DNA of 64,000 nt from Lingula anatina (taxonomy: Eukaryota; Animalia; Brachiopoda). The notes beneath the pieces were generated by a model. That model had not been told where the DNA came from. It saw only the letters and a list, made by a program, of their open reading frames with translations, and did no database searches. Shown here one piece after another: positions 30,795-63,492 of the stretch. The stretch's first letter is position 1, and each line of letters begins with the position of its first letter. The translations under genes were made by a program, and so were the position numbers. Where the stretch lies: the NCBI GenBank assembly GCA_051362555.1, contig CM120643.1:124001-188000 (forward strand), in the 5' to 3' direction.

Positions 30795-32992
30795 TCAGGA
30801 TTCACTGATATCAGGGTTGCGATATCCCGGTTTATAGTTTACTTGCGGCAGTTGAGGTGTTACTGGTTCATACCCCTTTTTCAGTGTTGGTTTGGCAAGT
30901 ATACTACCAACGTATGCTTCCAACTCTCTCTTTATCTGATTCTGATTAAGTCGCTCTTCAGGCTGACGTTGGGTGCACTTCTGGATAATCGCCCACCACT
31001 TGGTCTCCAGTCCCTGGGCGTTGGCACCGTGAACATCGCTGAGTGCTGACAGCACCGCCTCTCCTGTTAGGAGACGGTTAGTGAACTCTTCTACGGTGAC
31101 GTCACTGGCATCATCGTAGACTTGCTGACCGTTCCACAGCTCCCACATTATCAAACCAAAACCATAGATGTCGCCATCGTGTGTGTACACCCCGCCTTGG
31201 AGGACCTCTAGCGGCAAATATCTGCAGGCACCGAGGGGCTGTAGGCGTCCAGCTGAAGGGATATTCGCCGGTCTTGGACACCCAATGTTAAAGAGTTGAA
31301 TGTGTCCATGTTTCTCCGGCGGTTGATCCACCTACATGTATAAAAACCTTATTATTGTTCCTGGTTTGCAGACAAAGGGTATATAAAATTGTTCATAGTA
31401 AAATATAACAGCAAAAACAGTATACAGTATGTCCATATGTCTGGTTTCCAATCGAGATCCCACGTATTGACGTCATATGACAACTCTAAATCGACATCGA
31501 AAACAAATACCCATGGTAGTTTAAGACTTCTGTGGGGAATCCCAGCAGTAACAATATATGCATCATTTTTACCTCCATACTCACCATCACCGTCTCCATG
31601 GACAACTCCATATGAACAAAACCCTTTCGGTGAAGCCACTCCAACGCGTCTATCAGCTGCTGGAGAAGGGGGATCAAACTGACGAATAACCGCCACTTGC
31701 AATCCTCTTTTGATGAGACGTGGCCTATTTAACAGGAAAAAAAAGTAGGTGTAGAACCGCATTGCAACCAAACGCATCTTGTAACTGCAGTGCATTTTGA
31801 AATCAAAGTAAAACGTCAGCACGCATTTTACAACCGCAATTAATTTAGCCACTATTTTCTTTTCTAAGGCACTGTTTAAAACTCAAATATACGTTAGAGA
31901 AAAAAGGTGTAGGGAAGAGATTATTAGCTCAATGGCGTTGTATTGGGAGTGGGCCTAAGTAAGGGACTTGAAGCTAATAGGGAGATTAATAGCCCTATCA
32001 TTAGGGATGTGCAAGGGTCCTTTCGAAACAGCATGCCTCTGGCTGTCTCCGAGGGTGGGGGACTTTAGTTTTGCTCACTGTATACTTTTCTCAACCATAA
32101 CAGTGTGTATATTTTTTAACTTTTGGGATTGACAGGAATGTGCAATGGCACGTTTGTCGACACTAATGGTCTAAAAGGATACAGCGGAAATTACAAAATG
32201 GAAATGGAATCTTCCACCCAAAAGACAGCCCTCATTCGCACTATAAGAGGATTCATGTCTCTGACAATAAATGTATAAATCCTAAATGTTTAAATGTCTC
32301 ACTCAGCCCCGAACACATTCCATGTATCTCATATGTATCACTATACAACTTGAAATCGTGTCAGTGCCTTGGTTGCAAGGTGCGTTGCGGTTGCAAAAAG
32401 CGCAGTCACGCTTTCTGGCTTTCACGCTTTCCAGGTCAACAAAAGATAAATTCAACTGTTTGCATCGGTTCATACATTCATAAACCATTCAGCAAATTAA
32501 CCATTCATGTTCTGTTTGCAACCGAACACATTTTGCAGGTCGTCAACGGGTTCATTCAACTGTTTGCATCCGTCATACATACCTATTTTTCGGACACACC
32601 GTTTTCGCAAGCTCATTATTGTGCCACTGAACACCAAGGACGGCAGGCTGGTAGACGGGTCGTTGAAACTCCCCATTAGTGCAGGGACGTATATCTCCCC
32701 GGGTTTTCCCAAAAATCTGCAAATAACAAAACGTAAAGAACATTATAACATCTATTGCCTTTCCATTTAGAGTATAGTTACTAGTGTAATAAAAAGTAAT
32801 GACTTAAAAGGGCAAATAAGAACACTGCAAATTTGCACGTGTCGTAGTTATAGTTAGTGTGAGCTGTTTGCAGATTTAATTAAATGCATTCTGATATCCC
32901 ATATGAACATTTTATGTATGAATATTAATTTATAAAAAATAATTATACAAGAACCCAACACACACTTAATAAGCAATTTTACATTACATGCA

Positions 32993-33028
<36 letters not shown>

Positions 33029-36000
33029 TATTATTATTATAAAATTGAAAAAATAATAAAAGCAATAGTGGAATGCACATTTTGATTAAAACATTATTAT
33101 TATACACATAATCACGCACCAACGCACACACAGACAAAAACGCATTCAGCTACAGGTGCATAAACGCACATGCTAAAATACCCATTTTCTCACCTCAGAG
33201 CTGCAATATCATCTAAAACATCATCCTCCGTAACTTCTAGATATACCTTGATCATCACTTTCTCTCCGGAATCTTTCAGGTGTAATGGGTAGACCTGCGA
33301 CCAGATCCCGCTTCTAACAATGGAATCAGTTGGTTGGATGGTTGAAAAGCTTTCAACCCCATATGATTTTCTATCAATGAATTTCAAATAGAATCTCTCC
33401 AGGCGATACAAAGTTGATCCCTGGCCAATGCCAAGCGTTTCCACAAGGGGTCTGTAGGTATCAATTATTTTGTCTTTGGAACGCTGATCGTCCTGAATGC
33501 AGGTTAGAAGCCTTTGTGTGCCTTCTACTAACTTTGGAATGTGAGTTTTCATGATCTCGAGTTGGTGAGAGGCGTCTTCAAATCGGCCTTCCATGCACTC
33601 CTTGCAGTGGCCTAAATCCTGGAAGACTTCACATATCTTGTTAGCTTGTTTTGTCAGAAAAACTGTCGGGTTGGCACGATAGAGATGTACAACTTCGTCC
33701 TGTCTCTTGCGGCGTATCCATTTCTTAATACTGGAAAGTCCAAACAGGGCCATCGGAATTGCTGCAAAGATTCCAGCTACGAAACCAACGGGCAGAATTA
33801 CCGGTGCAAACAGACCAATGGCGACTTTTTCTTTTAATGTCACGATCGGCGTCCTGGCTACGTCATCATCCATCAATCCTTCCACATCGATTTGAAACTC
33901 ATCTGTGATGTCCTGCAAATTTCCCATGGGGTATGCATTCGTTTTTTCAATCAGTTCATCTTCTATCTGCTTCAGTTCACTTTCAAGCAGTTGAAAGAAC
34001 GTGGCAAACTTTTTAAACTGCGACTCCAGTGCAGCAGCCATGTAGTTCCCCTTTTTCTCCCAGCTAGAAATTATGGACATAAATTTTTCATTAATGGTTT
34101 CTTCTATTATCGATTCAAAGTCCTCAAAGAGTAAGCCACCTTGGGTGTCAGGCAATTTCCACTCCGTTAGTGCCCGTTTTACCTCAGATGTATAGAAGTG
34201 ATCTTTCAAACAAGTTGCCGTAAATTCTATTTTATCTGCTAAGTCTTTTGTGAGTTCCTCCATCTTGGAATCAGCATTGTCCCGAAAGGTCTGCAGCTTT
34301 TGCTCCACCTGGCGATGTACCTTCAGCAGGTCTTCCTTGGACAAAGACGCATTGGAGACGTAAACCTCGGCAGTGGTCATGGTTCTAGTCACAAACCGTC
34401 GCAACCAGCTGTAAAATGATGATGGCAGAATAAGTAAACCACGAAAGGTGACAGTTCACGGGCTGGGATGATGGTAGAATAAGTAAACCATGAAAGGTGA
34501 CTGTCCACGGGCTGGGATGATGGTAGAATAAGTAAACCATGAAAGGTGACTGTCCGCGGGCTGGGATGATGGTAGAATAAGTAAACCATGAAAGGTGACT
34601 GTCCACGGGCTGGGATGATGGTAGAATAAGTAAACCATAAAAGGTGACTGTCCGCGGGCTGGGATGATGGTAGAATAAGTAAACCATAAAAGGTGACAGT
34701 CCACGGGCTGGGATGATGGTAGAATAAGTAAACCATGAAAGGTGACTGTCCACGGGCTGGGATGATGGTAGAATAAGTAAACCATGAAAGGTGACTGTCC
34801 GCGGGCTGGGATGATGGTAGAATAAGTAAACCATGAAAGGTGACTGTCCACGGGCTGGGATGATGGTAGAATAAGTAAACCATAAAAGGTGACTGTCCGC
34901 GGGCTGGGATGATGGTAGAATAAGTAAACCATAAAAGGTGACAGTCCACGGGCTGGGATGATGGTAGAATAAGTAAACCATAAAAGGTGACAGTCCACGG
35001 GCTGGGATGATGGTAGAATAAGTAAACCATAAAAGGTGACTGTCCACGGGCTGGGATGATGGTAGAATAAGTAAACCATAAAAGGTGACAGTCCACGGGC
35101 TGGGATGATGGTAGAATAAGTAAACCATAAAAGGTGACAGTTCACGGGCTGGGATGATGGCAGAATAAGTAAACCATGAAAGGTGACTGTCCACGGGCTG
35201 GGATGATGGTAGAATAAGTAAACCATGAAAGGTGGCAGTCCTCGGGCTGGGATGATGGCAGAATAAGTAAACCATGAAAGGTGACTGTCCACGGGCTGGG
35301 ATGATGGTATAATAAGTAAACCATGAAAGGTGACAGTCCACGGGCTGAGATGATTGTACAATAAGTAAACCACGAAAGTTGACAGTCCACGGGCTGGGAT
35401 GATGGTAGAATAAGTAAACCATGAAAGGTGACAGTCCACGGGCTGGGATGATGATAGAATAAGTAAACCACGAAAGGTGACAGTCCACGGGCTGGGATGA
35501 TGGCAGAATAAGTAAACCATGAAAGGTGACTGTCCACGGGCTGGGATGATGGTAGAATAAGTAAACCAGGGTGGGAGACCACTTAGCCTCAGGCTGGGAG
35601 ACCACTTAGTTTTAGGCTGCTAAACATAAACAAGCTCACAAGTTTTTTCATTAAAATATTTTAAAATATTTTTTAAATTGCCATTGGACTCTTTAGTTTT
35701 GTAACTACATTGGGAGAATGTTTTACTAATTTGGGACGCATACTTGCAGAGCTAGGTCGCCACAGGTTTTAAGTCTTTATGGCGTAATACGCGGCATCAC
35801 CTAAGACTGAACGAGTGATCTAAAAATAAGAATCGCCAAATATTGATGAAATCGAATATCATTTCACGCTCTACATTACATTTTTTAGGTACTTGCCAGA
35901 TTATTGTTAAAATTCTAAAACTCACTCATAATTCAGTAGAATCCGCCTCTGCAAGCTGATTGGCACCAACTCCTTGATTCCATTTAGTAGAGTGTCATAG

Positions 36001-39000
36001 TCATCGCTTACATAGCCCAGTCCCATGCTGACCCGTGCTTTCTTTGCTGACATGGTGAACACCTGCTTCTCTGGACTGATGCCAGGCCAACATTTATCAA
36101 GATCCTTGATGATTTTTTCCTTCACCATTTTCCTGTCTTCCTTTGGAACCAAATCCCATCTATTACAAACGAAAATGGCGGATCTAGGATCGAATGAGTT
36201 TGTGCCCTCAGCGTCTTGATGTTCAACAAGCATTTTCAGCAGCTTTTGAAGCTGAAACGTAAAAGAAAATATTGAAACATATACCGGCAGTGCAGATATT
36301 TTCTGAAACCGATATCAGATAATTGAAAAATTGTTCCTTCTCTGTAAAATATAATGGTTAATTAACTGTAAGACAACTGGAAGTCAGTATAACCTTCATA
36401 TCCCCGTTTTATAAACACTGGATAGCGCTACTTTACACCTTACCTCTAACTGTAACCCTCTCATACACAGTTGGTCTAAATGGAGGGAATTAAAACACAT
36501 CATAGAGGCACTGTTTGTATACTGACAGTCAATGAAAATGCATCAGAAAACTTTACTTTTTTACCGATAATCGATTCCAACCATATAAACGAGCACAAAT
36601 GCACTTGTTTGGTCATAAGAGAGTGGGCTGACCACTCGGATGTTTAAAATTTCCGCTTCCGTGATTTTGTGATCAGCTGTTTTTTTCTGTCTCGTGATTG
36701 GTGTGATTTAATCAGGTTCAATACATGGTGATTAATTAAGCCTATTTAAGGTAGTCACCGAATCCAGTATGACACATAACAAAAAAAAAGTTCAGTTATG
36801 CCACGTCTGACGCTGGAAGAGCGACTGCGGGCCCTGGGGATGCTGGAGGATGGGCGGAACCAAAGATATTTGATCACGTGACCTTGCATTTTAATGATCA
36901 TTTCTGACCTTTATTTCACCTTGTGTGACTGAATAATGGGTCATATTTCACACGAAAAATATTATTTTCTTAATGTGACCAAAGGAACTTAGTATAGTAT
37001 TTGATAAATAAATGATGCGTTTTCATTGACTGTCAGTAAAGTTACTTGCATTATAATAACCCTTGTAATATTCTCGCTCAGATAAACCAAAAAATCTTCT
37101 CGACTTTCAATTTCCCAACTGCCACACGTGAGAAATGTCATGTTACCCTGTCTTCCTGCACGCCGCCGGCATTATCGCTTAGAATGACGTAAATGAAGGC
37201 AAATACACTGTTCTGGTCAATGAAATCTGTCAGTATCCGATCCATGATTTCACTCTCCCCTATACCAGGCGTGTCCACGATGTACACTCCACTCTGAAAT
37301 ACAAACGCGAACGATGAGATATGATTTCGGCAAAGATAAGAATTCGATAATAAGCGGTGATATGGCGGCCGGAGGCTGCACGTGACGGTTGGGGTCAGAG
37401 GTCAGGGATATGGTGGTCATGGCGATTGGGGTCAGAGGTCAATGCTATGGTGGTCATGGCAGTTGAGGTCAGAGGTCAAGGCTATGGTGGTTATGACGGT
37501 TGGGGTCAGAGGTCAGGGCCATGGTGGTCATGTTGGTTGGGGCCAGAGGTCAAGGCCATGGTGGGCATGTTGGTTGGGGTCACAGGTCAAGGCTATGGTG
37601 GCCATGTCGGATGGGGTCAGAGGTCAAGGCTATAGTGGTCATGGCAGTTGGGGTCAGAGGTCAAGGTTATGGTGGTAATGACTGTTGGGGTGAGAGGTCA
37701 AGGCTATGGTGGTCATCGTGGTTGGGGTCAAAGGTCAAGGGTGTGGTGGTAAAGGCGGTTGGGGTCAGAGGTCATGGCTATGGTGGTCATCACGGTGGGG
37801 GTCAGAGGTCAAGGCTATGGTGGTCATGGCGGTTGGGGTCAGAGGTCAAGGCTATGGTGGTCATGGCGGTTGGGGTCAGTGGTTATGGCGGTTGGGTTCA
37901 GAGGTCAGGGCCATGGTGGTCATTGTGGTTGGGGTCAAAGGTCAAGGCCATGGTGGGCATGTTGGTTGGGGTCACAGGTCAAGGCTATGGTGGCCATGTC
38001 GGATGGGGTCAGAGGTCAAGGCTATAGTGGTCATGGCAGTTGGGGTCAGAGGTCAAGGTTATGGTGGTAATGACTGTTGGGGTGAGAGGTCAAGGCTATG
38101 GTGGTCATGGCGGTTGGGGTCAGTGGTCATGGCGGTTGGGGTCAGAGGTCAGGGCCATGGTGGTCATCGTGGTTGGGGTCAAAGGTCAAGGCCATGGTGG
38201 GCATGTTGGTTGGGGTCACAGGTCAAGGCTATGGTGGCCATGTCGGATGGGGTCAGAGGTCAAGGCTATAGTGGTCATGGCAGTTGGGGTCAGAGGTCAA
38301 GGTTATGGTGGTAATGACTGTTGGGGTGAGAGGTCAAGGCTATGGTGGTCATCGTGGTTGGGGTCAAAGGTCAAGGGTATGGTGGTAAAGGCGGTTGGGG
38401 TCAGAGGTCATGGCTATGGTGTTCATCACGGTGGGGGTCAGAGGAAAGGCTATGGTGGTCATGGCGGTTGGGGTCAGAGGTCAAGGCTATGGTGGTCATC
38501 GTGGTTGGGGTCAAAGGTCAAGGGTGTGGTGGTAAAGGCGGTTGGGGTCAGAGGTCATGGCTATGGTGGTCATCGTGGTTGGGGTCAAAGGTCAAGGGTG
38601 TGGTGGTAAAGGCGGTTGGGGTCAGAGGTCATGGCTATGGTGGTCATCACGGTTGGGGTCAGAGGTCAAGGCTATGGTGGTCATGGCGGTTGGGGTCAGA
38701 GGTCAAGGCTATGGTGGTCATGGCGGTTGGGGTCAGAGGTCAGGGCCATGGTGGTCATGTTGGTTGGGGCCAGAGGTCAAGGCCATGGTGGGCATGTTGG
38801 TTGGGGTCACAGGTCAAGGCTATGGTGGCCATGTCGGATGGGGTCAGAGGTCAAGGCTATGGTGGTCATGGCAGTTGGGGTCAGAGGTCAAGGTTATGGT
38901 GGTCATGGCGGTTGGGGGTCAGTGGTCATGGCGGTTGGGTTCAGAGGTCAGGGCCATGGTGGTCATTGTGGTTGGGGTCAAAGGTCAAGGCCATGGTGGG

Positions 39001-42000
39001 CATGTTGGTTGGGGTCACAGGTCAAGGCTATGGTGGCCATGGCGGTTGGGGTCAGAGGTCAAGGCTATGGTGGTCATGGCGGTTGGGGTCAGAGCTCAGG
39101 GCCATGGTGGTCATGTTGGTTGGGGCCAGAGGTCAAGGCCATGGTGGGCATGTTGGTTGGGGTCACAGGTCAAGGCTATGGTGGCCATGTCGGATGGGGT
39201 CAGAGGTCAAGGCTATAGTGGTCATGGCAGTTGGGGTCAGAGGTCAAGGTTATGGTGGTAATGACTGTTGGGGTGAGAGGTCAAGGCTATGGTGGTCATC
39301 GTGGTTGGGGTCAAAGGTCAAGGGTGTGGTGGTAAAGGCGGTTGGGGTCAGAGGTCATGGCTATGGTGGTCATCGTGGTTGGGATCAAAGGTCAAGGCTA
39401 TGGTGGTCATGGCGGTTGGGGTCAGAGGTCAAGGCTATGGTGGTCATGGCGGTTGGGGTCAGTGGTCATGGCGGTTGGGTTCAGAGGTCAGGGCCATGGT
39501 GGTCATTGTGGTTGGGGTCAAAGGTCAAGGCCATGGTGGGCATGTTGGTTGGGGTCACAGGTCAAGGCTATGGTGGCCATGTCGGATGGGGTCAGAGGTC
39601 AAGGCTATAGTGGTCATGGCAGTTGGGGTCAGAGGTCAAGGTTATGGTGGTAATGACTGTTGGGGTGAGAGGTCAAGGCTATGGTGGTCATGGCGGTTGG
39701 GGTCAGTGGTCATGGCGGTTGGGGTCAGAGGTCAGGGCCATGGTGGTCATCGTGGTTGGGGTCAAAGGTCAAGGCCATGGTGGGCATGTTGGTTGGGGTC
39801 ACAGGTCAAGGCTATGGTGGCCATGTCGGATGGGGTCAGAGGTCAAGGCTATGGTGGTCATGGCAGTTGGGGTCAGAGGTCAAGGTTATGGTGGTAATGA
39901 CTGTTGGGGTGAGAGGTCAAGGCTATGGTGGTCATCGTGGTTGGGGTCAAAGGTCAAGGGTGTGGTGGTAAAGGCGGTTGGGGTCAGAGGTCATGGCTAT
40001 GGTGGTCATCACGGTGGGGGTCAGAGGTCAAGGCTATGGTGGTCATGGCGGTTGGGGTCAGAGGTCAAGGCTATGGTGGTCATGGCGGTTGGGGTAAGTG
40101 GTCATGGCGGTTGGGTCAGAGATCAAGGTTATGGTGGTCATCGTGGTTGGGGTCAAAGGTCAAGGGTGTGGTGGTAAAGGCGGTTGGGGTCAGAGGTCAT
40201 GGCTATGGTGGTCATCACGGTTGGGGTCAGAGGTCAAGGCTATGGTGGTCATGGCGGTTGGGGTCAGAGGTCAAGGCTATGGTGGTCATGGCGGTTGGGG
40301 TCAGAGGTCAAGGCTATGGTGGTAATGACTGTTGGGGTGAGAGGTCAAGGCTATGGTGGTCATCGTGGTTGGGGTCAAAGGTCAAGGGTGTGGTGGTAAA
40401 GGCGGTTGGGGTCAGAGGTCATGGCTATGGTGGTCATCACGGTGGGGGTCAGAGGTCAAGGCTATGGTGGTCATGGCGGTTGGGGTCAGAGGTCAAGGCT
40501 ATGGTGGTCATGGCGGTTGGGGTCAGTGGTCATGGCGGTTGGGGTCAGAGGTCAAGGTTATGGTGGTCATCGTGGTTGGGGTCAAAGGTCAAGGGTGTGG
40601 TGGTAAAGGCGGTTGGGGTCAGAGGTCATGGCTATGTTGGTCATCACGGTTGGGGTCAGAGGTCAAGGCTATGGTGGTCATGGCGGTTGGGGTCAGAGGT
40701 CAAGGCTATGGTGGTCATGGCGGTTGGGGTCAGAGGTCAAGGCTATGGTGGTCATGGCGGTTGGGGTCAGAGGTCAAGGTTATGGTGGTAATGACGGTTG
40801 GGGTCAGAGGTCATGGCTATGGTGGTCATCACGGTGGGGGTCAGAGGTCAAGGCTATGGTGGTCATGGCGGTTGGGGTCAGAGGTCAAGGCTATGGTGGT
40901 CATGGCGGTTGGGGTCAGTGGTCATGGCGGTTGGGGTCAGAGGTCAAGGTTATGGTGGTCATCGTGGTTGGGGTCAAAGGTCAAGGGTGTGGTGGTAAAG
41001 GCGGTTGGGGTCAGAGGTCATGGCTATGGTGGTCACACGGTTGGGGTCAGAGGTCAAGGCTATGGTGGTCATGGCGGTTGGGGTCAGAGGTCAAGGCTAT
41101 GGTGGTCATGGCGGTTGGGGTCAGAGGTCAAGGCTATGGTGGTCATGGCGGTTGGGGTCAGAGGTCAAGGTTATGGTGGTAATGACGGTTGGGGTCAGAG
41201 GTCAAGGCTATGGTGGTCAGAGGTCAAGGCTATGCGTCAGATGTCAGGGTTATGGTCTCATGCTCTCACGTTCTCCGTCGTTAACCAATGGCAAATTGAC
41301 AACCATATACGGATAAGACGGATTTTTTACATTGAAAAGAAATATGGGAAGATGTATTACTAAAGTGTGTTCAAACCTTTAAGACATCCAACGGTAGAAA
41401 TATGTCAACAGTATATGCTAACTGCTTGGATCTGTCCTCGGGAAAAAGGTACGGCTTAAGAGCGTCATGGATAGATACACCAGCGTTTTTTAATGGTATA
41501 ACTGTTTCCATTTCGTCGTCTGTATGAGCACAGGCGTTCACTTGGCGAATAACAATGCGTTTTTCATTAGGCGGGGCGTATTTGATGCGTGTGATGGTAG
41601 CCGTACAAGGGAGGTGATCCTCCGGAAGGACCTTGTCTTGAAGGAGCACATTCAACAAGGAACTTTTACCCGAGGATGTCTCACCTTAATTAAAAGGAGA
41701 AATGTTCTAACAAGACTTTCAAAGAGGGCCTGTGTGTTTTTAGGGAGATTGTTTGTGGTTATACCACTTATTCAAAAAGCGACGTGAAATACCACAGAAG
41801 TTCATAGAACAACATTTTTTTATTATGCCATGGATTAGATAGAGTTGTGTTAAACAGTTTCATGTGCTATAAGTTTTTGGTAAACAAAAATACTGTTTTT
41901 AAAATTTCTGTTACATTTTTCTATAGCTATTGATAAATAAACTGTTTATGTTTATGGTTGGAATTGAAAATGAAGGGTGGACCTTTGCATTGCAGATGTC

Positions 42001-44731: not shown

Positions 44732-45705
44732 TCATATTTGGAATCCTTTTATACCTCCATTTGAGTACGATTGTGTCATTATATGTCGTTTTACTCTTTC
44801 AATTTTTCCATTCCATAAGAAATTAAAGCACATTTTTTGTATTTTGTCTGCATATTTATTTGGTATTGGCAATGTGGAAAATAAATGAGTCATTTTTGGA
44901 AGGATCATTGATTTAAGAATTACATTTCTCCCCAAAACTTAGCGATCGGTGAGTCCATTATTTCATAATTCTTTCCATATCTTCGAGTTTCTCTCTAAAA
45001 ATTTTCTCAATCATTTCATGTAAATTTACTGAGAAATCTATTCCAAGGATTCTGAAAAAACGTTCATTCCAATCGAGATTCAACTCTTTACACTCTTGTG
45101 AGTCTTTCTTGCTTCCGAACCAGTTTAATATAGTTTTTTGATTGTTCATTTGTAGTCCAGAGAATTGTGAGAATTCATTTAGAATCTTTAGGGTATTTCT
45201 TAAACTTTTTTTCAGTCCCATCCAACACAATAGTCGTGTCAATAGCATACTGGGAGATGAGAAAAGTTTGATTATGTATTGTAATGCCTTTTATGTCTAT
45301 TTCATTTTTAACATGATACTTAGTATCTCAGCACAAAGAATGAAAAGGTATGGGGAGATGGGGTCCCCTTGACGGCAACCCCGAGAAAGATTGAAGAAAG
45401 AAGAGGCAAAACCATTAACCAAGGCACACGAAGAGGAGTCTTTAAGGAAGAGCTTTATCAATTTTATGATAGATTCTCTAAAGCGAAAGAATTCAAAGGT
45501 TTTTTCGATAAAACCCCAATCGATTGAATCGAAAACATTAGCAAAATCGATTTGCATCAACAGACCTGGTATTTCATGCGAGTCACAGTATTCAATTAAA
45601 TCGAAAATGGTCCGTGTATTCTCACCTATGTATCTGCCCGCCATAAACTCATTTTGGTCTTCATTTATTAATATTGGTAGTACTTTCTTTATTCGATTCG
45701 TTGAA
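44732..45705 (-). mobile_element. Degenerate L1/Tx1-type non-LTR retrotransposon reverse transcriptase fragment
   Basis: GRYIGEN, IDFANVFDSIDW, RGCRQGDPISPYLFILCAEIL, decayed SQYAIDT (YADD), FSQFSGLQMN, ILGIDF, LKSMILPK..HLF, FLWNGK, GGI. Contains frameshifts and stops. Confidence 0.88.
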
Positions 45706-51322: not shown

Positions 51323-54300
51323 TTAATTTCATCTCTTTTACAAATATTTAATATGCTAATTAATTGTAAAGACTTGGTGACCTTTGGTGAGTCGTTTTAA
51401 TTTTATGGACAATTTTACCTACGTGGAAATCATCGTGGAACATCAGAATCTTGAGAGTTGAGGGGGTGCTCGTTATAAATGTCACAAATAATATAAAATA
51501 TGGAAATCTTTACCGGAAATTGTGCATTTTTTGTACCATTAGACATGTAAGATACAGTATCTGAAAAAAACATTGTTCAGGATAGTTTTCAGATATGAGT
51601 GATCGTTTGTAAACAAAAACACGTGGGGATGAAGGTGGAACAACATTTGACCAAGACTGTACGACACATGATTATTGTAACATTTTATATTTTAGCTGGG
51701 CAACCTCAACATCATCCATAACAGTGTGAAGAAGGATCGACGGGTGAGGCAAGAACTCAGAAAGCACCTTGAAGGCCTTAATGAATACCTGACAAAGTTG
51801 CCTCCGAATAAAACTGACAACCTTAATAAAGAGTTGATGCCATCCACCGTGGACGAAGTTGTGCAGAACTTGCTTCGTGAAGCAGATTCACCGGCTAGCG
51901 CTATCCTTGTCGCCGGTAAGTGAAATAACTTTGTTATTACATGTCTTTTCAGAGAGGCATGGACAATATATTCCAACTGTAAATAGTATATATTGCTTAT
52001 TTAAGGGAAATCTTGATTTGATTGCATATGTTCATGTATATTGTTTATGCCAGTAAAAGAAAACAACCATGACTCAGCTTTCGCTATTACAAGTATTATC
52101 ATTTTAGTAAATTTTAAAATCAATATAAAACACTATTATATAAAAAGGGCTCACGTGCTGCATACTGCACTTGGACATGGTAACACTCAAATCGATATGT
52201 GGTACATTTCCGGAATCAAAGTTAATGTAGTTATTGAAGATATGTGGTACATTTCCGGAATCAAAGTTAATGTAGTTATTGAAGATATGTGGTACATTAC
52301 CGGAATCAAAGTTAATGTAGTTATTGAAGATTTGTGGAGTTTTGGTTGCATTGTGATGTATCCTAGGTATAAGTAAAGTTAACAAATAGCAATAAGACTG
52401 CAACATGGTTCCAATATAGTTGTTTTGTCTCCACTAGTGGGGTTAACCAGCTCCGAAATTCTGCCGCTAGATGGCGTGGAAGCACTTTCAGTACTACTAA
52501 AATCTCGCGTTTCACACCATAGTTTTACAGGTATTGTTAACATGCGACACTGCTGTATATATACTCACTTTAAGGCAAATTATTCAAATGTGGTCCCCGT
52601 GACAACGAGAAAAAAAAGGCGAATTGAATAATATACAGTGTCGTCACTATATATATTTACCAACAATGGAAATAAAATCGTTATACATAGCTGACTTAGT
52701 TTCTGTTCACATATCTCAAATGGTGACATTGACGATTTCACGTACCTTTTTCACATGAATCCATTTCAACATTGAAATTCAGTCGTTGTTTTTTTTTCTG
52801 AAAAGTTTATTTGAGTAATTATATCTTAAGAAGTTATTTCAGCATGACATGTAGCCATCTATCGAGGTCACGTGGTTTGATGGCAAGCACAGATTCCAGA
52901 ATAATTACGAAAAAGACCGTTTGGTTGTAAGATAGAATTTATTTTATTGCTGCGAGTTAATTTTTGTTTACAGTGTATTGCTTGTGAAATATGGATCTCA
53001 TCCGAAGAATTTTTATCCCTTTAATTTTCCGACAACAAGACAGACTAAATCTATAATGAAAATGACACTAAAATTTTAAAAAATTAGTTAAAATATTGTA
53101 AAAATTATTTTTATGAGAATAGTAAAACGTAAATTCAATTAATTTTTTTCAAAATCAGTAAAAACGCACTTTTTTGTTTACGTATAAAATGAGCGATTTT
53201 CTGTGCATTCATTTTAATAAATGACAAAGGCTATGTGCTTTACTGCAAGGACTAAAAGCTTTTTATATTTCTCTGAATTTACACAAAATGTCAAAAGTCA
53301 CATTAATATATTCCTTCCTACTTTCCTTTTACCTTGAGAAAATATAAGTTCATGTGTCAGAAACCTTAGCACACAAAATAAACCGGGTGAGATATTATCT
53401 TGGCTGTCTAGGGATGAAAACATAGATACGTGACCCCTACGATCTTTTATCATTAAACCAGGGTACCAAGGGTGTTTTATCTTTGTGCACACACGGTTGG
53501 TGGCAATCCTTTATTGAAGACGAAGTCCTGAATTCTAGTGAAACTGATTCCCACCTTGTCGATTTTAACATCCAGTTATGCAGCAAATATTTTGGCATGT
53601 TAAAGGGGATTCGGCACATTAACAAAATGTTTTGCACGTTGCATATTCTTCAGAAAACGTGGTCAAATAACGATGTACATATCGATATATACAAACTCTT
53701 AAATGTCATCATTTCCTGCAGACGAGGAGGAAAATTCGTGTCCTGAAAATAAAGGATGGTAATGGAATGTAGCTTTGTTGACAGTTGTGTGACGCTCGAA
53801 TATACTGTAGCGATTGGGGGGGGGGGGGGGGGGGGGGGGATAACACCAGGCTCGACCGGGATTTGAACCCGGGACGCTTGCAAAGCTTGCGACTGCTCTC
53901 CCAACTGAGCCCGTGCCAATCCCGGTCAGCTACTACAATACAAACAAAATGGATTTTTTTTTTATGTCGAAAGCCATTTTTTTTTTTTTTTTTTTGCATT
54001 AACAGCAATACACTTTTCTTACCCAAGTAGTTTAACTATTATCCAATGCACTGAGACATATAACCTGTGGTGGAATTAGAGTGGGAGGGGGGACAGGAGT
54101 GTCCGGTCCCCCCCTTCGGTTTCTGAAAAATATATCACACCAATATTCCCCATATTGAAATTGAATTTTGCCTAGCTAAATCATAGTTCTAAACCGTACC
54201 AGAAGGCATTGTTTTCTCTCCAAAACCCATATCCATTAGTATTTTTTTTTTATACTGGTAGCGTTTATAATTTTATGGGTAATCGATTTTCAGTTTAGTT

Positions 54301-57300
54301 GTAATAAAGTCTACAGGTCAAGTGATGTGCCTCTAAAACTAGTAAACTTGTGTTTACCGTGTCACTTCCTCTTTAAAGTTGAACATTTCTAGTACACACA
54401 CTGGACAAAAGAAGTGTCACCCCCTAACTCAGAGTAATAAAAGTAGGCAGATCTTGGGTACTTATAATGCCTGGTCTACTTATAATGTGACTAATGAGTA
54501 TAAAACCGCTATACCATGGAATTGTATTGTTGGTCTTGTACATGTACATCAAATGTTATTCCTGTCTTCCTCCAATATGGCAAGATACAGGCAATTATCT
54601 AACAGTTATAGGTGCAAGTTATTAACCTGAAGAGGCGGAATATAAGCAATGTCAGAATATCGATACAATCGAATTGTTCAGTCAGAACCGTGCAGAGGGT
54701 CTTGTCTCAGTATAGAAACACTGGATCAAGAGACAAATTGCCTCTGATGGGTCGTCCAAGAAAAAATACTGACCGTGAAGACCGACGACTAATTTTGATG
54801 TCCAGGTTGTCAAAGTTCGACACTGCTTGTCAGTTGACAACACAGTGGAACAATTTCACACATAAGAATGTGTCTGTGAAAATTGCTAGGCGTCGGTTAC
54901 ATGCTCAGAGAGTGTACATCAGGGTAGCAAGACTGAAACCTCTTATACCGTTACAAAACAGGCAACGTAGAGTAAACTAGGGTCAACAGGATCTGGAACT
55001 GGACAGTTCATGACAATTGGTCCTATATATTTTTTTCTAATGAGTGTCGCTTTGGTCTGACCTCTGATGACAGACGGGTACTATGCTGGCAAACTGCTGG
55101 TAAAGCATTTGAACCACATGCACTGAATTTTCGAACCCGGAGCAGCATATTCATCATGGTGTGGGGCTGCATCGGCATCCATGGCTTGGGCGAATTTATA
55201 GTGGTTAATGGAAACATGAATCACTAGAAATATATCGATGTTTTGGAGTCAGGCTTGCTACCATCTATTACTAACATGTTTGGTGACAGGAATTATCCAT
55301 TTGTTCACCAGGATGACAATGCTCCTTGTCACAGGCCCAGAGCAGTTGATGATTGGTTTGACCAACTGGACATTCGCAGGAGGATGTGGCCTGCCCAGAG
55401 TCCGGATGTTAACATAATAGAAAATGTGTGGAATGATATGTCAAAACTTTTTACAAATGTCCGTCTAACCAGCAGAGAAACTGATATATTCAGTGTTTCA
55501 TGCTTGGGCCAGCATAAGCCCTGAACGCATCAGACAATTATATGAATCCTTGCTTCGTAGACTGGCACCTATTATTAGGTCACGTGGCTATGCCACTAAG
55601 TACTAATTTTGGACCTGAAACTGCATATTATGGTAGAATGTATATTTTGTTCTCATTTTATGATTTTTTGTGAAATTTGATGTTAATAAAATGATACCAG
55701 GAGCATATCATTCCACAGTCATTTATCTCCCCCATAGTATTGTCTCAGTAGGGGTGACACTTCTTTTGTCCAGTGTGTGTACATTTAGTATGTAACGGAC
55801 AAAATGGCGGCTGTAGGACTGAAAGCGCAACAGCAGGCTGGTATATTATATTATATTATATTATATTATATTATATTATATTATATTATGTGCAAAACCA
55901 CTTCCTGTGTTTAGGAGAAACATCTGCAGGAAAGAGTTCTCTCATCAACCTTCTCCTTGGAGAGGAAGTTCTCCCGACCTCCTTCATAAGTAATACGTCG
56001 GTAATCTGCGAGATCAAATACGACACCCAGAAGAGAGCGGACGTCTACAGATTCGGTTCAGATACACCTGACGTCACTTTTCCCCTGGAAAAGACAAAGT
56101 CCGTGGAACAACTGAAGCCATACCTGACCCAAACTGACAGCAGCCGTGATGTGGAGGTCTTCAAATATGAGAGAGTTGAAATATTTTGGCCATTGGATCT
56201 ACTAAAGGTACGTATAGTAAATTAATTTCAGATTCTTTGGTCATATGCCGCATGATAAATTTAGATATTTACTGCAACTAGCTTATCTGTTTAACGCATG
56301 GAGACACCTGTCATTACATTTATTACATATTTTATGAGACACAAAAAAGGTAATTGAATGCAGATGAATGACTACTCATCTAAGCACAAAAATACTACCG
56401 TTTTTATACTACTGGTTATACCTTAGATAATAACTTCATGTAACACCTTAGATACTAACTAATACCTTAGATAACAACTTACACAAGGCTTAGATACTAA
56501 CTAATAATACCAGCTTAGCATTAGTGAAAAATAACTGCAGAGTAATCCTCTGGAGGAAATACCAGTTTGTTATCGTTTTTGTATTATAATTTTCAAGAAT
56601 GTTTATCATATACCTATATAGTGCTTTGAAATGAAATAATATGCACTTCATAATTAAGAAAAATGCATACTGTCATCATTATTTTAATACTCTTAGCCGG
56701 CAGACACAAAAGGTAACCTTAGCTTCTTATACATGTATATCTGCTCTGCTCCTATCAGAGGTCTCAATCATTGCTTGTTATAAACCTGCTATTTATTAGA
56801 AAAATATAATAATGAACCTTGAACCGAAACCGTTCGTCTTCTAGCACTCCGTATTCTTGGTGGATAGTCCAGGTGTTGGGGAAAACCAGAGAATGACCAA
56901 CCTCGTTAAAAGCTACATACCCAAAGCATCCGCCTTCATCTATGTTATTAACAGTATGAACGCAGGAGGAGTACAGGAGGGAAGGGTAGGTGTAACTGAC
57001 GTGTAACTTTATATGTCAAGGCAAATACTGGCCGATTAATAATGTATCAATTTTACTGTAACTTCTGCCACAACTTTCTTTTCAGGGCAAAAGTAAATTT
57101 TGGGCGAATATACTAAATATTATGTATTGGTTTAAATAGAATTTAAAAAGCTACTATTCTTTCTTATCCCATCAAAGTATAGAACTAATCTTTGAAGATA
57201 AGTTAATATACGGATACAATGAAAAATGATCATTTTGGGTCGGTATATTCTATCCAAAATTCTTGTTGTGTAGCGAAGGTTTTGTGGTTACACAGTTACA

Positions 57301-60300
57301 CAGTCATGAGATGTGTGAAGCCATGATTGTCTGTTCTTTTTACTTTTACAGTTGAAAAAACTACTAGAAACTGCTGTGAAAAACTCACATAAGGGTGCTC
57401 AGGATCGAAGTGTGTTTGATCCAGCGTCTAGCATATTTGTGTTAAATCGATGGGACCAGGTCGACGCAGACAACAAAAAAGCTGTTTTTGATGACACACT
57501 TAAAAAGCTGAAGAACATCAGCACAAAGTTTCATGAAGGTCAATTATTTCCTATGGCCACAACTCAAGTACGTTACATTTGATTTCTCTAAGTGCAGTTA
57601 TCATAGTTTTAATGTTGTATTCTAATTACATTTTACCTACATGTATATCTACATGTGTCGAAACGCGTCTTCTAAGTTGTATATTTTACATAACAGCATT
57701 TGCGATGATGTTGTAATTGACCTTTTCACTTTGTAAAATCGGTGCAAAACGAAATATATTGTTATGTGCCCTTCGTATATAATTCGTAGCATCATATAAA
57801 GACAATGGATTTGATTTTGAAATGTTTATTTTACATACTAAAGGCCTAAGCTACTAGTACAACTAGTGGCTACTAGTACATGAACACTGTGGACATGTGA
57901 TATATATGTTTAATGAATCATCATTTATATAAACCACAGATTACAGTAAAATTACAATCGGTCTTCAGATCAGAAATACGATAATCAGCTCTTCTTAACT
58001 GGACATTTCAGGCCTACAGCGCATTACAACAGGACGTCGTAAATCCGGACTATGCAGCATTGCTTCATGGCATAGAACTTCTGATCCCCAGGACCCAGAG
58101 GGTTAAACAGGAGACCATATACAGGTATGCATTGGCAATTATTTTCCTCAGCATTATCTCGGTATAATTTGCCGTTTGATCTCTAAAGCTGTCTTTCAGC
58201 CTAGTGCATTTACCTCTGTTCTTGACAAACAGTGTTGATTCCCCATGGATTGAAGTTGAATATTCTGAATGTTTTACCGTCATTTCAGGAGAGCGACGTA
58301 CCTTCTGCAACGCTCATCTTTCCATCTGCATTCCACAATACGCCAGAAAAGAAACTCCATGAGTCAGGACGAACGCTTAAGAGACATTCTGTCACAGCAG
58401 CTGCAGATTCTGGAGCGCCAACACGGGAAAGAGGTAGACGAGATCAATGCCGCCGTTATTAAGGCAAGTGAAGACGCGGCAAGAGAAATACTAGGTCTTC
58501 TTAAAAATGGAAGCATACGAGAGGCCATTCTGCGCTTTGAAGGTGAAGACTTTCCCGACTGCAAATCAGGCAGCCAGTGGTCAGCATTCTACAAAGCAGC
58601 AAAAGAAGCCACAAATAGGAAAATAAACACTGAGGTAGACAAATGGCTGACACAGAAACATTACTTTGAAAATATCCGCAATCAACTTTGGGAGGATATC
58701 GCTAGCAAATACCAATTATTAGAACACCAACAAAACTTGATAGAAGCCCAGATAGCTTATAATTATGGAGAGTCGGAGGAGGTTGGCGGAGGAGATAACA
58801 CCACTGCGTTGCAAATCAACGAAAGCATAGGACCAAATATACGGATCAATAAAACCCAGAAGGTTCTCGTGGCAGCTACTGCACCTCTGTGGATCCCTGT
58901 TGGTCTCGTGGCGTCCGTGTTTCTTATCCCTGCAGTGTCAGCATATGCCATTAAGGACAAAGTAAGCTCCGTCAGGTACAATAAAGATAAATCAAAAGCA
59001 ATGCATTCTATTGCTGAAAAACAGATTGCCAAGTGCTGTGAAAAGGAGAACCATTTGGCAAAGAAAATTGAAGAAATGTTGAGATCCCAGCTGAAGCCAT
59101 TGTTTGAGTCTTATAACATGATCAAACAGATTGTCCAGGTTGACGTGGAGCTGTTAAAAGAGCAAGCACTGTTTCACAGCGAAGAAACTGCTCGAATCTA
59201 CGACTGTTGCAAGGAAAATAGGCGCATTACATCTAGATTTGACATTCTGTACATTGCGGCAATACGGGACTACTGCATCGCATACACAGACATCTGCTGG
59301 GGGGAGAGGGTCGCGAGCGGGATGTTTGGAGATGTGCGCAAGGCGACACACGAGCAAGAAGATGTTGCTGTGAAGGAGATGAAGTGTTCATTTTCGGCCT
59401 TCGATTACACTGATAGCGACTCCAGGAGGTAAGAACGAGACCAAATTGATATTCTAAACTCGAACGTTTGGGTTTTTTAGTGCATCGAAAAAGAAACAAC
59501 CACTGCACCTGTACAAGTAGAGTTTTTTTATAACCGAGTACTTAAGATGAGAAGTAGCCTATATGTGAGACTATAAAGAACTAGTGTATACTGCAGTGTA
59601 GGACATGTCAATCATCTACCGTATATAAGGTGTGTAAAGAGATAACCATTGTGTGTGTTCATACATGCCCCTCTTCTTATTGCAGAGCCAGTGATTTCTT
59701 GAATGAAGAAGAAGCATTAAGGTAATCTCAACTCATTTGTCATGCTTACATGTACAAAGATTGACTGACCCAGGTTATAGTTTATCTCGGGCTGCTGATA
59801 GTTATAAAAGTAAACAGTCTCCAGCCATATTGGTTGATGTCCTCATTGTGGACTTGGTTGCAGGTATCGGTGACGACTATGAAAACAAAGCATTTGCTCG
59901 TTACAGAGTTAATAAAAAGGTTGTGTGGTAACGCAGATGTAAACTTGCAGCGTATCTAGCCTATATAATACCCGATGCTGACAGAGTGAATGTTGTGATT
60001 CTCCTCGTCGTGTTTTAACTTATTATATATATATATACAGACTTGACATTTAATATGGAATATTTTTTTCCAAATCATAATTCATCAGTTTTTTTTCCTA
60101 TTTTGCTGACTGATAAATGAAAATAAGGATTAAAATCGTGTTTTAATAACTTTTGAAAATCTATTCGATGTCAGTGTGACATCAGTTCATTAACTGAATT
60201 CGCCAGTGAAGCATACAAAAATACATTGCCTATTTTAAGTCATACGACAACCATTGAAAGCGATATTTTGGATCTCCATATTTTCCAAATTATTGTCTAT

Positions 60301-63300
60301 AAAAGAGTTACACGTCCCACAAAGGCCCCCCATGTCAGTCTCTAGTCACAGCAACAGTCGCTGTTACGCTTTACCTCATCTTGCTGCTACCAGAGGTTTC
60401 AAGCCGCAAGGTATTCCTTATGATAGGTTTTTAGAGTTCAATCTGAAATAAAATCCGGGCAACGGTTAAAACTTGTCCAATTTGGCTCAGTTTTGTTGTA
60501 GGACATGCAGGCCGTTGATACGGCGAGTAATGACCAACCGACATATTGGCTATGTGGTTCAATTATGGCGATTTTGATGACCAAGGTAGCTACTCATTCC
60601 CTTGGTTCTGTAAGTTATCTGCTATTAAAAGTCCTCTGTGTGAACCGGCAATCTCATCGTGCAACCTAAAATTGTTCCTAAGTTGCCCCCTATCAAATGA
60701 TAGTCAAGTGGTTCCCAGATTATTCCTTTATTTGATCTGGTTCAGGTTTTCATCGATGACTACTATTGGTGTTTTGGCACCAATGTGGTATCCACTCCAA
60801 ATACTGACACTGTCAATGACCCTGGTCACTTAAGAAGTGGCACACGTTTCGTCGTAGGCCTCTTCAGGATGTCTGTAAACTCTGTTTTGACCAGTTTAGC
60901 GGTACAGGTGAAGTTTGACCCCAATAAAGAAAGCCACGCGGTTTCAGTGTTCTACCCAGAAACGGTCATGGTCCCCAATTCATTAGAGAACCAGACTGCG
61001 CTGTTTTGTTGTTTACAGTGGCTTCCTCAGAGGTCATCTGGTATCTTAACCTGCTGAAACCAGTTTGGTGTACGATAAGAGCCTTGAAAAACGCGTTTTG
61101 GTGACAATTTACCCCTCATTCAAAACGGACTGGGTGGTTTTGGTTTAATTGCAGCAGCATATCCTGAAGGACAGTGAGTCCTGTACCCTGGTGGTAATAC
61201 GCCAATGCATTGGGCGTGGTCTCTGTGTAGGTACATCAGTCTGGGCATTACTCTATAAAACTGTATAGACCATTCCGTTTGACACAATAATCTGTCTGGC
61301 AATGTCTGTGCTTTTTGCGCCATTCTGGCACAGCTTAACAATTTTGTAAAACACTGCTTACTTCATTTTACGCACTGCAAAACCGACCTCTTGCATACAA
61401 AATTTCAAATTCGTCTATGCAGTAGTTGCCGATATATGGATACTTTTTTGACAGAACCATGCTTCGCCAAAGCCAAGCTTTGACCAGCCCAAAGGAGCAC
61501 TGCCCAATTAAATCACTGCATATTACACAAGACAACAGAGCAACAGACTAGGTAGTCAGTTAATTGGCAGCGACACACCTGACTACACACTTCTCCAGTC
61601 AGATGTCTTATATGAGATCTGAATTTTTTGAAAAAAGAACGCATTTTTACCTAGGTATACCTTTAAAACTGAAATATTCCATATTAAATGTCAAGTCTGT
61701 ATATACATATATAAGTAAAGAAAAATTGAATCTGATACTGGATCTTACTTGAAGCGAGTAATCCCGCGTGGGCTGCCACCACGTGACACCAAAGCGTGCA
61801 TGTATGTGGTAAACCATAAGATCAGACGCTAGTCCACCACTACGCCCTAGACCTCGAAATTTTTTAAAAACATGTTTAAAATATATGTTTAAAATCAAAT
61901 ATTTAGCAATTTAACTGTTACTGAACCTTTAGTTATCAAATTCCATTTTGCAGAAAATTAAGCCACAAGAACATCATTGAATATCGCGGGACTGCAGCAC
62001 AGCGGGTTGCCGGCGGCAGTGTGAACGTTGCCATTATCATGGAATACGTCGACTTCACCTTAGCCCAGCGTATCATTGTCCCAAATCAACACAACCAGTT
62101 TGAGGAAAGGCGTAAAACTAACCGTCGCGTCGACCCTCGTTTCTTGACCACCGCGGTGGCGTTCTTTGGCCAACAGATATTCCAGGGTCTTCACTATATC
62201 CACAGACAAGGTTATGCACATAGGGATCTGAAGCCTGAAAACATCTTGGTAAGGTTTTATATGACTTACATTATTATATTGTATTGTTTTATGACCCTCC
62301 CGCGCACTGATGGGCACATAAACATAGGCATATGGTAAAGAAATCTTAATTGGTGTGTCTCCGGTTTATAACAACATGGTGTAGCATGAGTTGCCGAGGA
62401 AAACGTGCTTTTTCGCCTATTTTCACCGACTATTTCATCCAGTGTCTTATGTAAGAAAGGAGTAGCATGGAAGCTACTCGCCCTATTTGTGTTGTGAATA
62501 GACAGTAGCTAAATACAATGCAGACTTATGGTGGACATGCTTAGCCGAAACGTGTAACATTCTTCAGATGGTTGCGCCCCGGCCCTTCCCTAAGTCGCTT
62601 AAGTTGGTTGCAATTAAGCGAGAATCCCCTTGGAGATAGAACAATCTACACTTAGTATATTGAGTCTGGGAATGATAATAAAACTTTCAAATTACCTTCA
62701 ATGTAAATAATAGTTTTACGTTCTAAACCTACTGTTTATTACCTTCAACGAAAAAATAAAGAGAACATTACAAAAATATAATTATCATTAGAATAATCCT
62801 GAAAAAATGTTCAAGATTTAAAAATTTAAAACCAGAATCCACAAAACTATTTTATACTGAAACAATTATTGTTTGTGTGACGTGAGATGGCCCATACATT
62901 TATGTATTAATATTACATATAGTTTATTAATATAATCTAGAATGCGTTAAAGGATTTAATGTTAAACTCATTTAACGGGCAGTCAACCTAAAGACGTGTT
63001 TGGAAACTGTTAAAAGAATAAAAAAAACCTGCTCCTGACAGCTAAATCAATAATCATCTTCATCTAATACGTTTAAATGTTGTTTAAATGTGTGGGTATT
63101 TTATGTTTAAGATCAGTAGAGATGATCAAGTAAAATTGGCAGACGTTGGGCTGTGTAAACCAATCAACGATATTCTCGGCACTACCTGCGGGACTAACCT
63201 TTATATGGCACCGGAAGTGAGAAGAGGTGACATCTATGGTTTTCCGTCAGACATCTTCAGCATGGGGTTGATACTGTGGGAGATGTGGTTTGGGATGAGA

Positions 63301-63492
63301 GCAAACCAGGACATAGCGTTCAGAGATGTCAATGACATGTCAGAATGGCGTCCACAGTTTGAGCAACCTGGACTTACATCACCTCCTCATGATCTGAGAA
63401 GCCTCATTGAAACATGCTGGGTACCCGACCCCCGAAAGCGCTTGAGATCAATGGCCGCAGTAGCGCGGTTGGAAAAGTTAGATAATATGTAA
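48389..63492 (+). CDS. Mitofusin/bacterial-dynamin-like GTPase + hydrophobic hairpin + active Ser/Thr(/Tyr) protein kinase (DSTYK-like architecture), ~1001 aa, 10 exons
   Basis: Exons 48389-48559, 51696-51915, 55915-56207, 56845-56985, 57352-57567, 58012-58124, 58289-59428, 59686-59721, 61954-62248, 63112-63492 (GT-AG, phases consistent, 3006 nt). G1 ILVAG|ETSAGKSS, G3 VDSPGVGE, G4 VLNRWD. Hydrophobic VLVAATAPLWIPVGLVASVFLIPAVSAY. Kinase motifs ASGMFGDV, VAVK, FLNEE, HRDLKPENIL, LADVG, GTNLYMAPE, SDIFSMG, CW..DP.KR. Confidence 0.9.
49640..50265 (+). mobile_element. 3' fragment of a non-LTR retrotransposon (degenerate ORF2 C-terminus)
   Basis: Translates in pieces to ILQDCGLNYIW..Q, FIQKW, ARFRTSNHRLPIEVGRW...RMCILC...VGD.FH..MDC...RKK, followed by an AATAAA/(TGAAA)-like tail. 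Confidence 0.7.
50507..50790. mobile_element. 284-bp MITE
   Basis: TIR CCCGCACGAAAA(T/C)G(C/T)AGTAG with complement CTACTACGTTTTCGTGCGGG. Flanked by TA on both sides. Confidence 0.8.
52194..52337. repeat. 45-bp tandem repeat, ~3 copies
   Basis: Unit GATATGTGGTACATTTCCGGAATCAAAGTTAATGTAGTTATTGAA. Confidence 0.9.
53845..53932 (-). mobile_element. tRNA-derived sequence (SINE head or tRNA pseudogene)
   Basis: Minus strand carries an A-box-like GGCTCAGTTGGGAGAGC and a B-box GGTTCAAATCCC, but no clean cloverleaf acceptor stem. Confidence 0.5.
54395..55779 (+). mobile_element. Full-length but defective Tc1-family transposon (DD34E) in intron 2 of the kinase gene
   Basis: TIR CACACACTGGACAAAAGAAGTGTCACCCC at both ends with TA TSD (54393-4, 55780-1). 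Transposase pieces GRPRK.T.REDR.L, FSNECRF, MVWGCIG, QDDNAPCH, WPAQSPDVNIIENVW, broken by stops and frameshifts. Confidence 0.93.
55842..55888. repeat. (TATTA)n microsatellite
   Basis: About 9 pentamer units upstream of the exon-3 acceptor. Confidence 0.85.
60450..61330 (-). mobile_element. Highly degenerate Tc1-like transposase relic
   Basis: Minus-strand pieces RVYRHPEEAYDETC, SVSIWSGYHIGAKTPIVVIDENLNQIKY, FRLHDEIAGSHR (QDDNAPxH-like) and LPWSSKSP*LNHIAN (WPSxSPDLNPIE-like). Boundaries are approximate. Confidence 0.65.

Follow-up and report, generated by a model that had tools for sequence, protein, structure and literature searches.

Several active kinases are maintained together with a partner whose kinase fold is dead, as in RIPK3-MLKL, LKB1-STRAD, EGFR-HER3 and RAF-KSR. 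In Roco proteins such as LRRK2, a GTPase and a kinase lie in one chain, and the kinase is possibly controlled in a nucleotide-dependent manner. Pairing is also known among dynamin-like proteins (DLPs). According to PMC6104087, most bacterial DLPs are encoded by side-by-side gene pairs, Cj-DLP1 and Cj-DLP2 of Campylobacter jejuni require each other for GTPase activity and lipid binding, with heterotypic assembly triggering both, and heterotypic isoform pairs are known for mitofusins. Here, we describe two divergently oriented genes, A and P, in a window of 64,000 nucleotides from the brachiopod Lingula anatina (contig CM120643.1, positions 124,001 to 188,000). Each gene is predicted to encode a dynamin-type GTPase followed by a kinase fold, active in A and dead in P, and we argue that the pair is likely a functional unit.

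Both gene models were rebuilt from six-frame translations and splice sites and then script-checked (Table 1). Each has ten coding exons and an open frame with one terminal stop (1001 codons in A, 1103 in P), and all 18 introns, nine per gene, have GT-AG borders. The ATGs are 5,128 bp apart, so that the models bear out the divergent pair of common architecture, with starts about 5 kb apart, proposed in the initial annotation. The six introns it had listed as common to A and P in position and phase are exactly those that align, leaving three per gene unshared; none of 200,000 random placements of nine against nine introns gave more than two shared introns. Global identity between A and P is 249/946, or 26.3% (BLASTP E 3e-68). 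The splicing of A is reproduced independently by the L. anatina RefSeq models P0001 and P0073 (96.4-96.8% identical), the exon-1 donor of P0073 lying 6 nt upstream of ours, and A matches L. anatina LOC106163463 (96%) and LOC106166300 (99.6% over 673 aa). The P model was built in this analysis without a matching database protein: a search with its exon 7 found nothing near-identical among proteins of 708-2020 aa, which is weak evidence. Tandem repeats fill introns 6 (34418-35568, a 49-bp unit repeated 23.5 times) and 4 (37386-41254, a 37-bp unit over ~3.9 kb) of P, and may explain why no full-length P model was retrieved.

The GTPase motifs G1-G4 are present in both genes, as GETSAGKS, T, DSPG and NRWD in A and as GETSSGKS, T, DTPG and NRWD in P. 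HRD, DxG and APE are found in the plus-strand copy only, again as first noted: A has intact kinase motifs (VAVK, HRDLKPEN, DVG, APE), whereas P has VMIK, where the beta3 Lys is kept, followed by HMELSMET, NIG and PLE. P has thus lost the catalytic-loop Asp and Asn and the DFG Asp while keeping its Pfam kinase match, which marks it as a putative pseudokinase. Dynamin_N is matched above the curated Pfam cut-off in P0001 and in the G1 exons of both genes. The N-terminal three-helix module, which may resemble SAP/HeH, has no Pfam match in the window exons, in P0073/P0001 or in the family alignment.

An AlphaFold2 model of the Lingula A isoform P0073, made from a 48-sequence alignment (predicted local distance difference test, pLDDT, 78; predicted template modelling score, pTM, 0.75), runs from the three-helix module through neck helices, G domain, long trunk helices and a poorly modelled hydrophobic segment (543-609) to the kinase, which directly follows the last long (neck) helix. 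For P, the protein modelled was its amphioxus relative P0127 and not the window protein. Both models (pLDDT 78, pTM 0.72-0.75) match Nostoc BDLP 2j69 best, P0073 with E 1.8e-16 and a target TM of 0.52, P0127 with E 9.9e-20 and 0.57, the latter followed by IniA, MFN1/2, Cj-DLP1/2 and kinases. Neck and trunk helical bundles arranged as in BDLP are predicted in both, and a kinase fold in P0127 as well. Hence, the shared architecture of helical domain, GTPase, stalk and kinase that had been read from the letters is predicted to be of the BDLP/mitofusin type. At the expected trunk-tip place both A and P carry a hydrophobic segment containing Pro and Gly (19-aa Kyte-Doolittle means of 2.07 and 2.38), where pLDDT falls below 50.

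Four of nine RNA runs were mapped (X1, X4, X7 and X9), with P exons 5 and 6 and A exons 9 and 10 outside the mapping. Because X7 and X9 look unstranded, their reads were counted without regard to strand; most mapped reads lie on repeats. Exonic reads for both genes occur in X7 and X9, whereas X4 has none on their coding exons and X1 hardly any. Depth over A exon 7 is ~4-5 in X7 and X9, and two spliced joints agree with the model; the exon-centred depth of P is 0-2.3 in the same two runs and nil in X1 and X4. This pattern fits low co-expression of A and P.

The pseudokinase clade and its active neighbours

A word-indexed search gave 71 matches at E<=1e-20, the named ones from amphioxus, corals, molluscs, a hemichordate and Lingula, and HMMER against 50% representatives gave 156 at E<=1e-30, of which the best 150 are listed. 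Both domains occur in 172 of 270 proteins plus the two window models, a redundant set that a motif rule divides into 85 active-type, 67 pseudo-type and 20 unclassified members. Databases mislabel family members as FGFR4, MAP3K12, Fer-like, mitofusin or MYO3B. Some relatives (P0042, P0114, P0115, P0028) carry extra domains: HEPN_DZIP3 in Oculina, four SAM repeats in Mytilus and a trypsin-like C-terminus in amphioxus.

In BLASTP, P is matched best by pseudo-type proteins from Ptychodera and from amphioxus (E 1e-131 to 1e-107, against 3e-68 for its neighbour A). Among 46 pseudo representatives (four outliers set aside), a class whose definition includes the loss of the DFG Asp, the catalytic loop is fixed as HxE/DLSxDT, with Asn replaced by Thr in 41/46, Lys by Ser in 35/46 and Asp by Glu in 30/46. 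The beta3 position is Lys in 24/43 and Arg in 19/43. Their GTPase motifs show the same degree of conservation as those of 64 actives: G1 GK, G3 DxPG and G4 Asp are present in all 46.

Trees were made without an outgroup, excluding fragments <800 aa, on subsets of 37, 51, 28 and 8 of 127 rows. With the motif columns removed, 19/19 pseudos lie on one side of the kinase tree (support 99/99). They also stand together in the 37-row tree lacking kinase columns (13/13, support 96) and in the 28-row full-length tree (13/13, support 100), and a single pseudo clade is compatible with the non-kinase columns in the approximately unbiased (AU) test (p-AU 0.55). Sisterhood of A and P is rejected on full-length columns (AU p=1.6e-4), and neighbours as sisters are rejected in 4/4 completed AU tests (amphioxus pairs p=4e-4, 3e-10 and 1.3e-3). 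Judging from these sequence comparisons, P belongs to one bilaterian pseudokinase clade and is not decaying, and the A/P duplication predates the protostome/deuterostome split. The initial annotation had suggested both an old duplication and a maintained pseudokinase; the first turns out older than could be seen from the window, and the second agrees with the loop fixed across the clade and the sparse exonic RNA. One-to-one orthology of the window pair with Bbelb_390260/270 was seen in one tree and was unstable in two others, and we do not claim it.

Outside the window, adjacency was read from identifier order, GenBank locus tags and accessions usually following position, and the types of the paired records were checked by motif. 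At four amphioxus loci, seen in nine assembly records, the identifiers of an active and a pseudo gene follow each other directly or skip one number. In the freshwater mussels (unionids) Sinanodonta and Potamilus they are six tags apart, on contigs of identical length within each pair (ACJMK2_017076/082, CHS0354_009099/105). The adjacent-identifier sets are CAH1255337-9/340, LOC109482623/625, LOC109478780/781, KAI8516162/3, LOC144902179-182, LOC144875471/472, Bbelb_390260/270, Bbelb_403050/060 and LOC144912205/206. By hand count, 11 of ~34 named pseudo records have a neighbouring active; side-by-side DLP genes thus recur, in the window and by identifier elsewhere. Some unpaired pseudos share a chromosome, or apparently a 329-kb scaffold, with an active gene. 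Non-consecutive RefSeq numbers are weak evidence against pairing, since the Branchiostoma lanceolatum pair is consecutive in GenBank and not in RefSeq. Recent tandem duplication cannot explain the neighbours, because they sit in separate deep clades. A metagenome scan covered 9 short loci, none with two family genes.

At one amphioxus locus the pseudo gene is followed by the active gene and then by FMO, which in fused models sits C-terminal to the active kinase. The 3' end of the active gene thus runs into FMO and its 5' end faces the pseudo gene, which fits either a head-to-head arrangement or a pseudo-then-active tandem. Hence, of the recurrent head-to-head adjacency initially expected, the adjacency stands by identifiers in amphioxus and mussels, and the orientation is half-tested, at this single locus.

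Some signs of co-evolution are suggestive only. In the 28-row full-length tree, the sister group of window A consists of mollusc actives, among them ACJMK2_017082 (99), and that of window P consists of mollusc pseudos, among them ACJMK2_017076, the neighbour of that gene (94). Amphioxus shows a second case, in which P0005 falls with a different set of mollusc actives (85) and P0031, its neighbour, with a different set of mollusc pseudos (94). The hydrophobic hairpin, absent at a cut-off of 1.8 from 27/61 actives and 26/46 pseudos, is kept in both partners of five pairs including the window's (one borderline, 1.79), while in the two unionid pairs the active and the pseudo partner alike have lost it (0.77/0.64 and 0.76/0.46). 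It is also lacking in two mollusc-rich lineages, one of actives and one of pseudos (P0034, P0036, P0138-P0167; P0175-P0253), and this parallel loss suggests a soluble version of the pair.

How the pair might work

The reading we prefer, with slightly more belief than doubt, is that A and P are an intact divergent pair from two old sister subfamilies, whose products co-assemble on a membrane where the pseudokinase controls the active kinase. Both proteins would bind GTP and dock on the membrane through putative paddle-like hairpins at the stalk tip. Contacts between GTPase domains, by analogy with paired bacterial DLPs, would join A and P subunits; such contacts would also bring the two kinase folds together, because the kinase folds adjoin the neck and the G domain. 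P would then be a non-catalytic allosteric or scaffolding partner gating the signal of A. The analogy with DSTYK suggests membrane stress or innate defence at endomembranes as the setting, for which we see about even chances. One might speculate further that bilaterians inherited A and P as an obligate heteromer encoded by two genes, which was copied as a whole several times ahead of the protostome/deuterostome split and which ties the remodelling of membranes, or the sensing of damage, to an innate defence that works through phosphorylation. It would correspond in animals to the paired DLPs of bacteria, and would be a candidate for the ancestral setting of DSTYK. We hold this extension to be possible and rather doubtful.

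A number of observations weigh against co-assembly of an old, conserved pair. About 23 of the ~34 named pseudo records came without a retrieved active neighbour, in a retrieval that went through cluster representatives and is incomplete; adjacency elsewhere depends on identifier order and not on coordinates; and in Mytilus californianus A (LOC127728682) and P (LOC127698716), whose contigs differ in length, appear unlinked. Among the four mapped runs P has no spliced joint above the listing threshold, at its depth of 0-2.3, and the reads on its exon 10 differ by ~10%, at 12-15 places each, so that they may come from a divergent allele or a close paralog. As for the trees, the 51-row non-kinase tree groups only 14/19 pseudos (support 91), the 127-row FastTree on non-kinase columns needs seven changes between active and pseudo, sisterhood of A and P is not rejected on non-kinase columns alone (AU p=0.067), and the sisters of A and of P vary from tree to tree. 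Corals were retrieved without the bilaterian-type pseudo clade, having actives and separately degenerate members. The hairpin region is of low confidence in both the P0073 and P0127 models, one amphioxus pair is discordant for it (2.18/1.38), and the joint unionid loss is a single event. Finally, the mirror test on eight pairs (rho 0.78, p=0.011) was made on poorly resolved trees and includes two pairs not shown to be adjacent.

The same records bear on an alternative that we consider unlikely, though it survives best: an ancient local duplication whose copies are held together by a shared regulatory region or by slowly rearranging clusters, each product forming homo-oligomers and the dead kinase of P binding other partners. 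The many pseudos without a retrieved active neighbour and the apparent lack of linkage in Mytilus would then be expected, as would clusters with several family members (LOC144902179-182, Oculina LOC144663376/380), and the full GTPase and hairpin of both A and P mean that each could assemble alone. Yet it is A-P, not A-A, neighbours that recur in separate pair lineages, the unionid loss of the hairpin hit both partners, and in paired bacterial DLPs the two different partners as a rule depend on each other (PMC6104087).

A sensor or decoy pair is, to our mind, somewhat less probable. Here P would act as bait or as an inhibitor, keeping A in check until P is struck by membrane damage or by a factor from a pathogen; A would then set off defence or cell death. 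The parallels with plant paired nucleotide-binding leucine-rich repeat proteins (NLRs) and with RIPK3-MLKL are analogies only. The catalytic-loop substitutions of P are fixed across phyla, as one would expect of a structural role rather than of a bait that changes fast. Extra domains do occur in the family, but some are possibly gene-model fusions, as in the FMO case. No Pfam match to NB-ARC/NACHT-LRR, RHIM or a four-helix-bundle executioner was found in P0073/P0001, in the window exons scanned or among the 25 families listed for the 48-member alignment. That P is a decaying duplicate with a drifted kinase is hardly credible: its very low RNA depth without a listed spliced joint, the absence of a near-identical database protein of 708-2020 aa and its long terminal branch in the kinase tree (1.69) would suit decay, but 1103 codons are open with 9/9 canonical introns, and it carries the same substitutions that are fixed in its relatives from amphioxus, a hemichordate and bivalves, to which it is closer (E 1e-131) than to A (E 3e-68).

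The locus and its surroundings

Table 1. Coordinates of genes A and P, their coding exons and the region between them (positions in the window)
Feature	Position	Strand	Basis
Gene P: BDLP-like GTPase, stalk/hairpin and putative pseudokinase	30795..43260	-	Gene model; Pfam single-exon Dynamin_N and kinase; best BLASTP pseudokinase-type
P exon 1, predicted ATG	43174..43260	-	Gene model
P exon 2, small N-terminal three-helix module common to the family	42752..42943	-	Gene model, family alignment
P exon 3, neck helices up to ILVAG, shared phase-1 intron	42056..42281	-	Gene model
P exon 4, G1 and G2	41377..41684	-	Dynamin_N E 8e-10; best solved-structure sequence matches Fzo1, BDLP
P exon 5, G3 and GGVQ motif	37147..37293	-	Gene model
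P exon 6, G4	35926..36251	-	Gene model
P exon 7, stalk, hydrophobic hairpin, pseudokinase N-lobe (VMIK)	33194..34408	-	Gene model; sparse RNA in X7, X9
P exon 8, pseudokinase	32583..32716	-	Gene model; sparse RNA
P exon 9, altered catalytic loop HMELSMET	31585..31724	-	Gene model, motif alignment
P exon 10, NIG replacing DFG, C-lobe, tail, stop	30795..31331	-	PK_Tyr_Ser-Thr E 1.6e-9; RNA in X9 only
Region between ATGs, 5,128 bp, with broken LINE fragment and inverted copy of A exon-1 donor region	43261..48388	.	
Gene A: BDLP-like GTPase, stalk/hairpin and kinase with intact catalytic motifs, ~1000 aa	48389..63492	+	RefSeq matches, predicted fold
A exon 1, N-terminal three-helix module; RefSeq donor 6 nt earlier	48389..48559	+	Gene model, RefSeq
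A exon 2, neck helices to ILVAG	51696..51915	+	Gene model; RNA joint 51916-55917, 9 reads
A exon 3, G1 and G2	55915..56207	+	Dynamin_N E 3e-11
A exon 4, G3 and GGVQ motif	56845..56985	+	Gene model
A exon 5, G4	57352..57567	+	Gene model
A exon 6, end of G domain	58012..58124	+	Gene model
A exon 7, stalk, hydrophobic hairpin, kinase N-lobe (VAVK)	58289..59428	+	RNA depth ~4-5 in X7, X9; joint 59426-59685, 8 reads
A exon 8, 36 nt, carries alphaC Glu	59686..59721	+	Gene model, RNA joint
A exon 9, to HRDLKPEN	61954..62248	+	Pkinase E 2e-14
A exon 10, DVG, APE, C-lobe, stop	63112..63492	+	Pkinase E 1e-16

The long interspersed nuclear element (LINE) fragment between the genes encodes part of a reverse transcriptase (~44500-45750, minus; RVT_1 E 2e-14). 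The inverted copy (116 bp, 80% identical; 47689-47798, minus) covers the end of A exon 1 and the start of intron 1. It lies 590 bp upstream of the A ATG, and its GTAAGT donor is intact and directed at P. A non-coding first exon of P might end at this donor, with an acceptor-like site at ~43366; if it is used, the start sites of A and P would be <1 kb apart. Counts of immune promoter motifs in the region separating the ATGs were 2 for kappaB-like (mean of shuffles 0.5), 3 for ISRE-like (0.73) and 4 for GAS (3.6); they were not used, because the patterns are loose, the shuffles simple and some matches lie in or near the LINE fragment.

Intron 2 of A holds a frameshifted transposase of Tc1/Tc3 type (54612-55521, plus), covered by RNA reads from related copies. 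Just downstream of P, a short repeat with inverted-repeat joints (30370-30550), probably similar to a miniature inverted-repeat transposable element, has an RNA depth >1000 in X7 and X9. A Creatinase-like gene (25037 onward, plus; Creatinase_N E 5e-17) converges on the 3' end of P. Elsewhere, the window contains a glycosyltransferase family 61 coding region (4284-5729, plus), with a stop at 4791-4793 between two long in-frame open reading frames (ORFs), and low-complexity Ser/Thr-rich exons (13868-20458, plus) with a 1080-aa ORF without Pfam match, followed by a segment that may resemble an HMG box.

Comparison with known systems

The nearest named protein clusters by language-model features are those of DSTYK (0.91-0.93, of similar length), which come behind two unnamed clusters combining Dynamin_N and kinase; some family members are automatically named DSTYK-like. 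This is best read as a relationship between A/P and DSTYK, judged by cluster similarity. The family probably does not consist of DSTYK orthologs, because the DSTYK clusters, unlike the A/P family, are without a Dynamin_N match and a separate mollusc DSTYK-like cluster exists. We know of no paired pseudokinase for DSTYK, and the accessible part of PMC9573974 treats it only as a kinase distinct from RIPKs. The N-terminus of human DSTYK would be worth checking for a dynamin-like fold.

Independently of how the products act, our analysis defines a widespread invertebrate family of ~1000-aa dynamin-kinase fusions that divides into a live clade and a dead but conserved one, with genes of the two often lying next to each other, and it offers candidate defence genes in bivalves. 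The literature we searched, which leaves most subscription papers aside, contains no description of the family or of the pairing.

In their predicted fold, A and P resemble C. jejuni DLP1/DLP2 (5owv/5oxf) and Nostoc BDLP (2j68/2j69), with a G domain of BDLP type, neck, trunk and tip. They resemble paired bacterial DLPs also in having genes side by side and G1-G4 kept in both partners. Unlike these, the animal genes have introns, are transcribed divergently rather than as an operon, and each encode a kinase fold, one live and one dead. Mitofusins MFN1/MFN2 and Fzo1 appear to be of the same structural class, with a hydrophobic hairpin at the stalk tip, but identity in structural alignments is ~14-17%, A and P carry a C-terminal kinase, and orthology is not implied. 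Roco proteins and LRRK2 differ in their Roc-COR module, the GTPase of A and P being predicted as BDLP-type with a helical stalk. Pairs such as RIPK3-MLKL or LKB1-STRAD differ too, since A and P are each fused to a dynamin-superfamily GTPase and are genomic neighbours, a pairing known here from genes. The locus is thus apparently an undescribed, conserved variant of the paired-DLP theme. If its products are partners, they would link the principle of bacterial paired DLPs to animal kinase/pseudokinase signalling, and provide a testable model of how a dynamin-type GTPase cycle switches a kinase.

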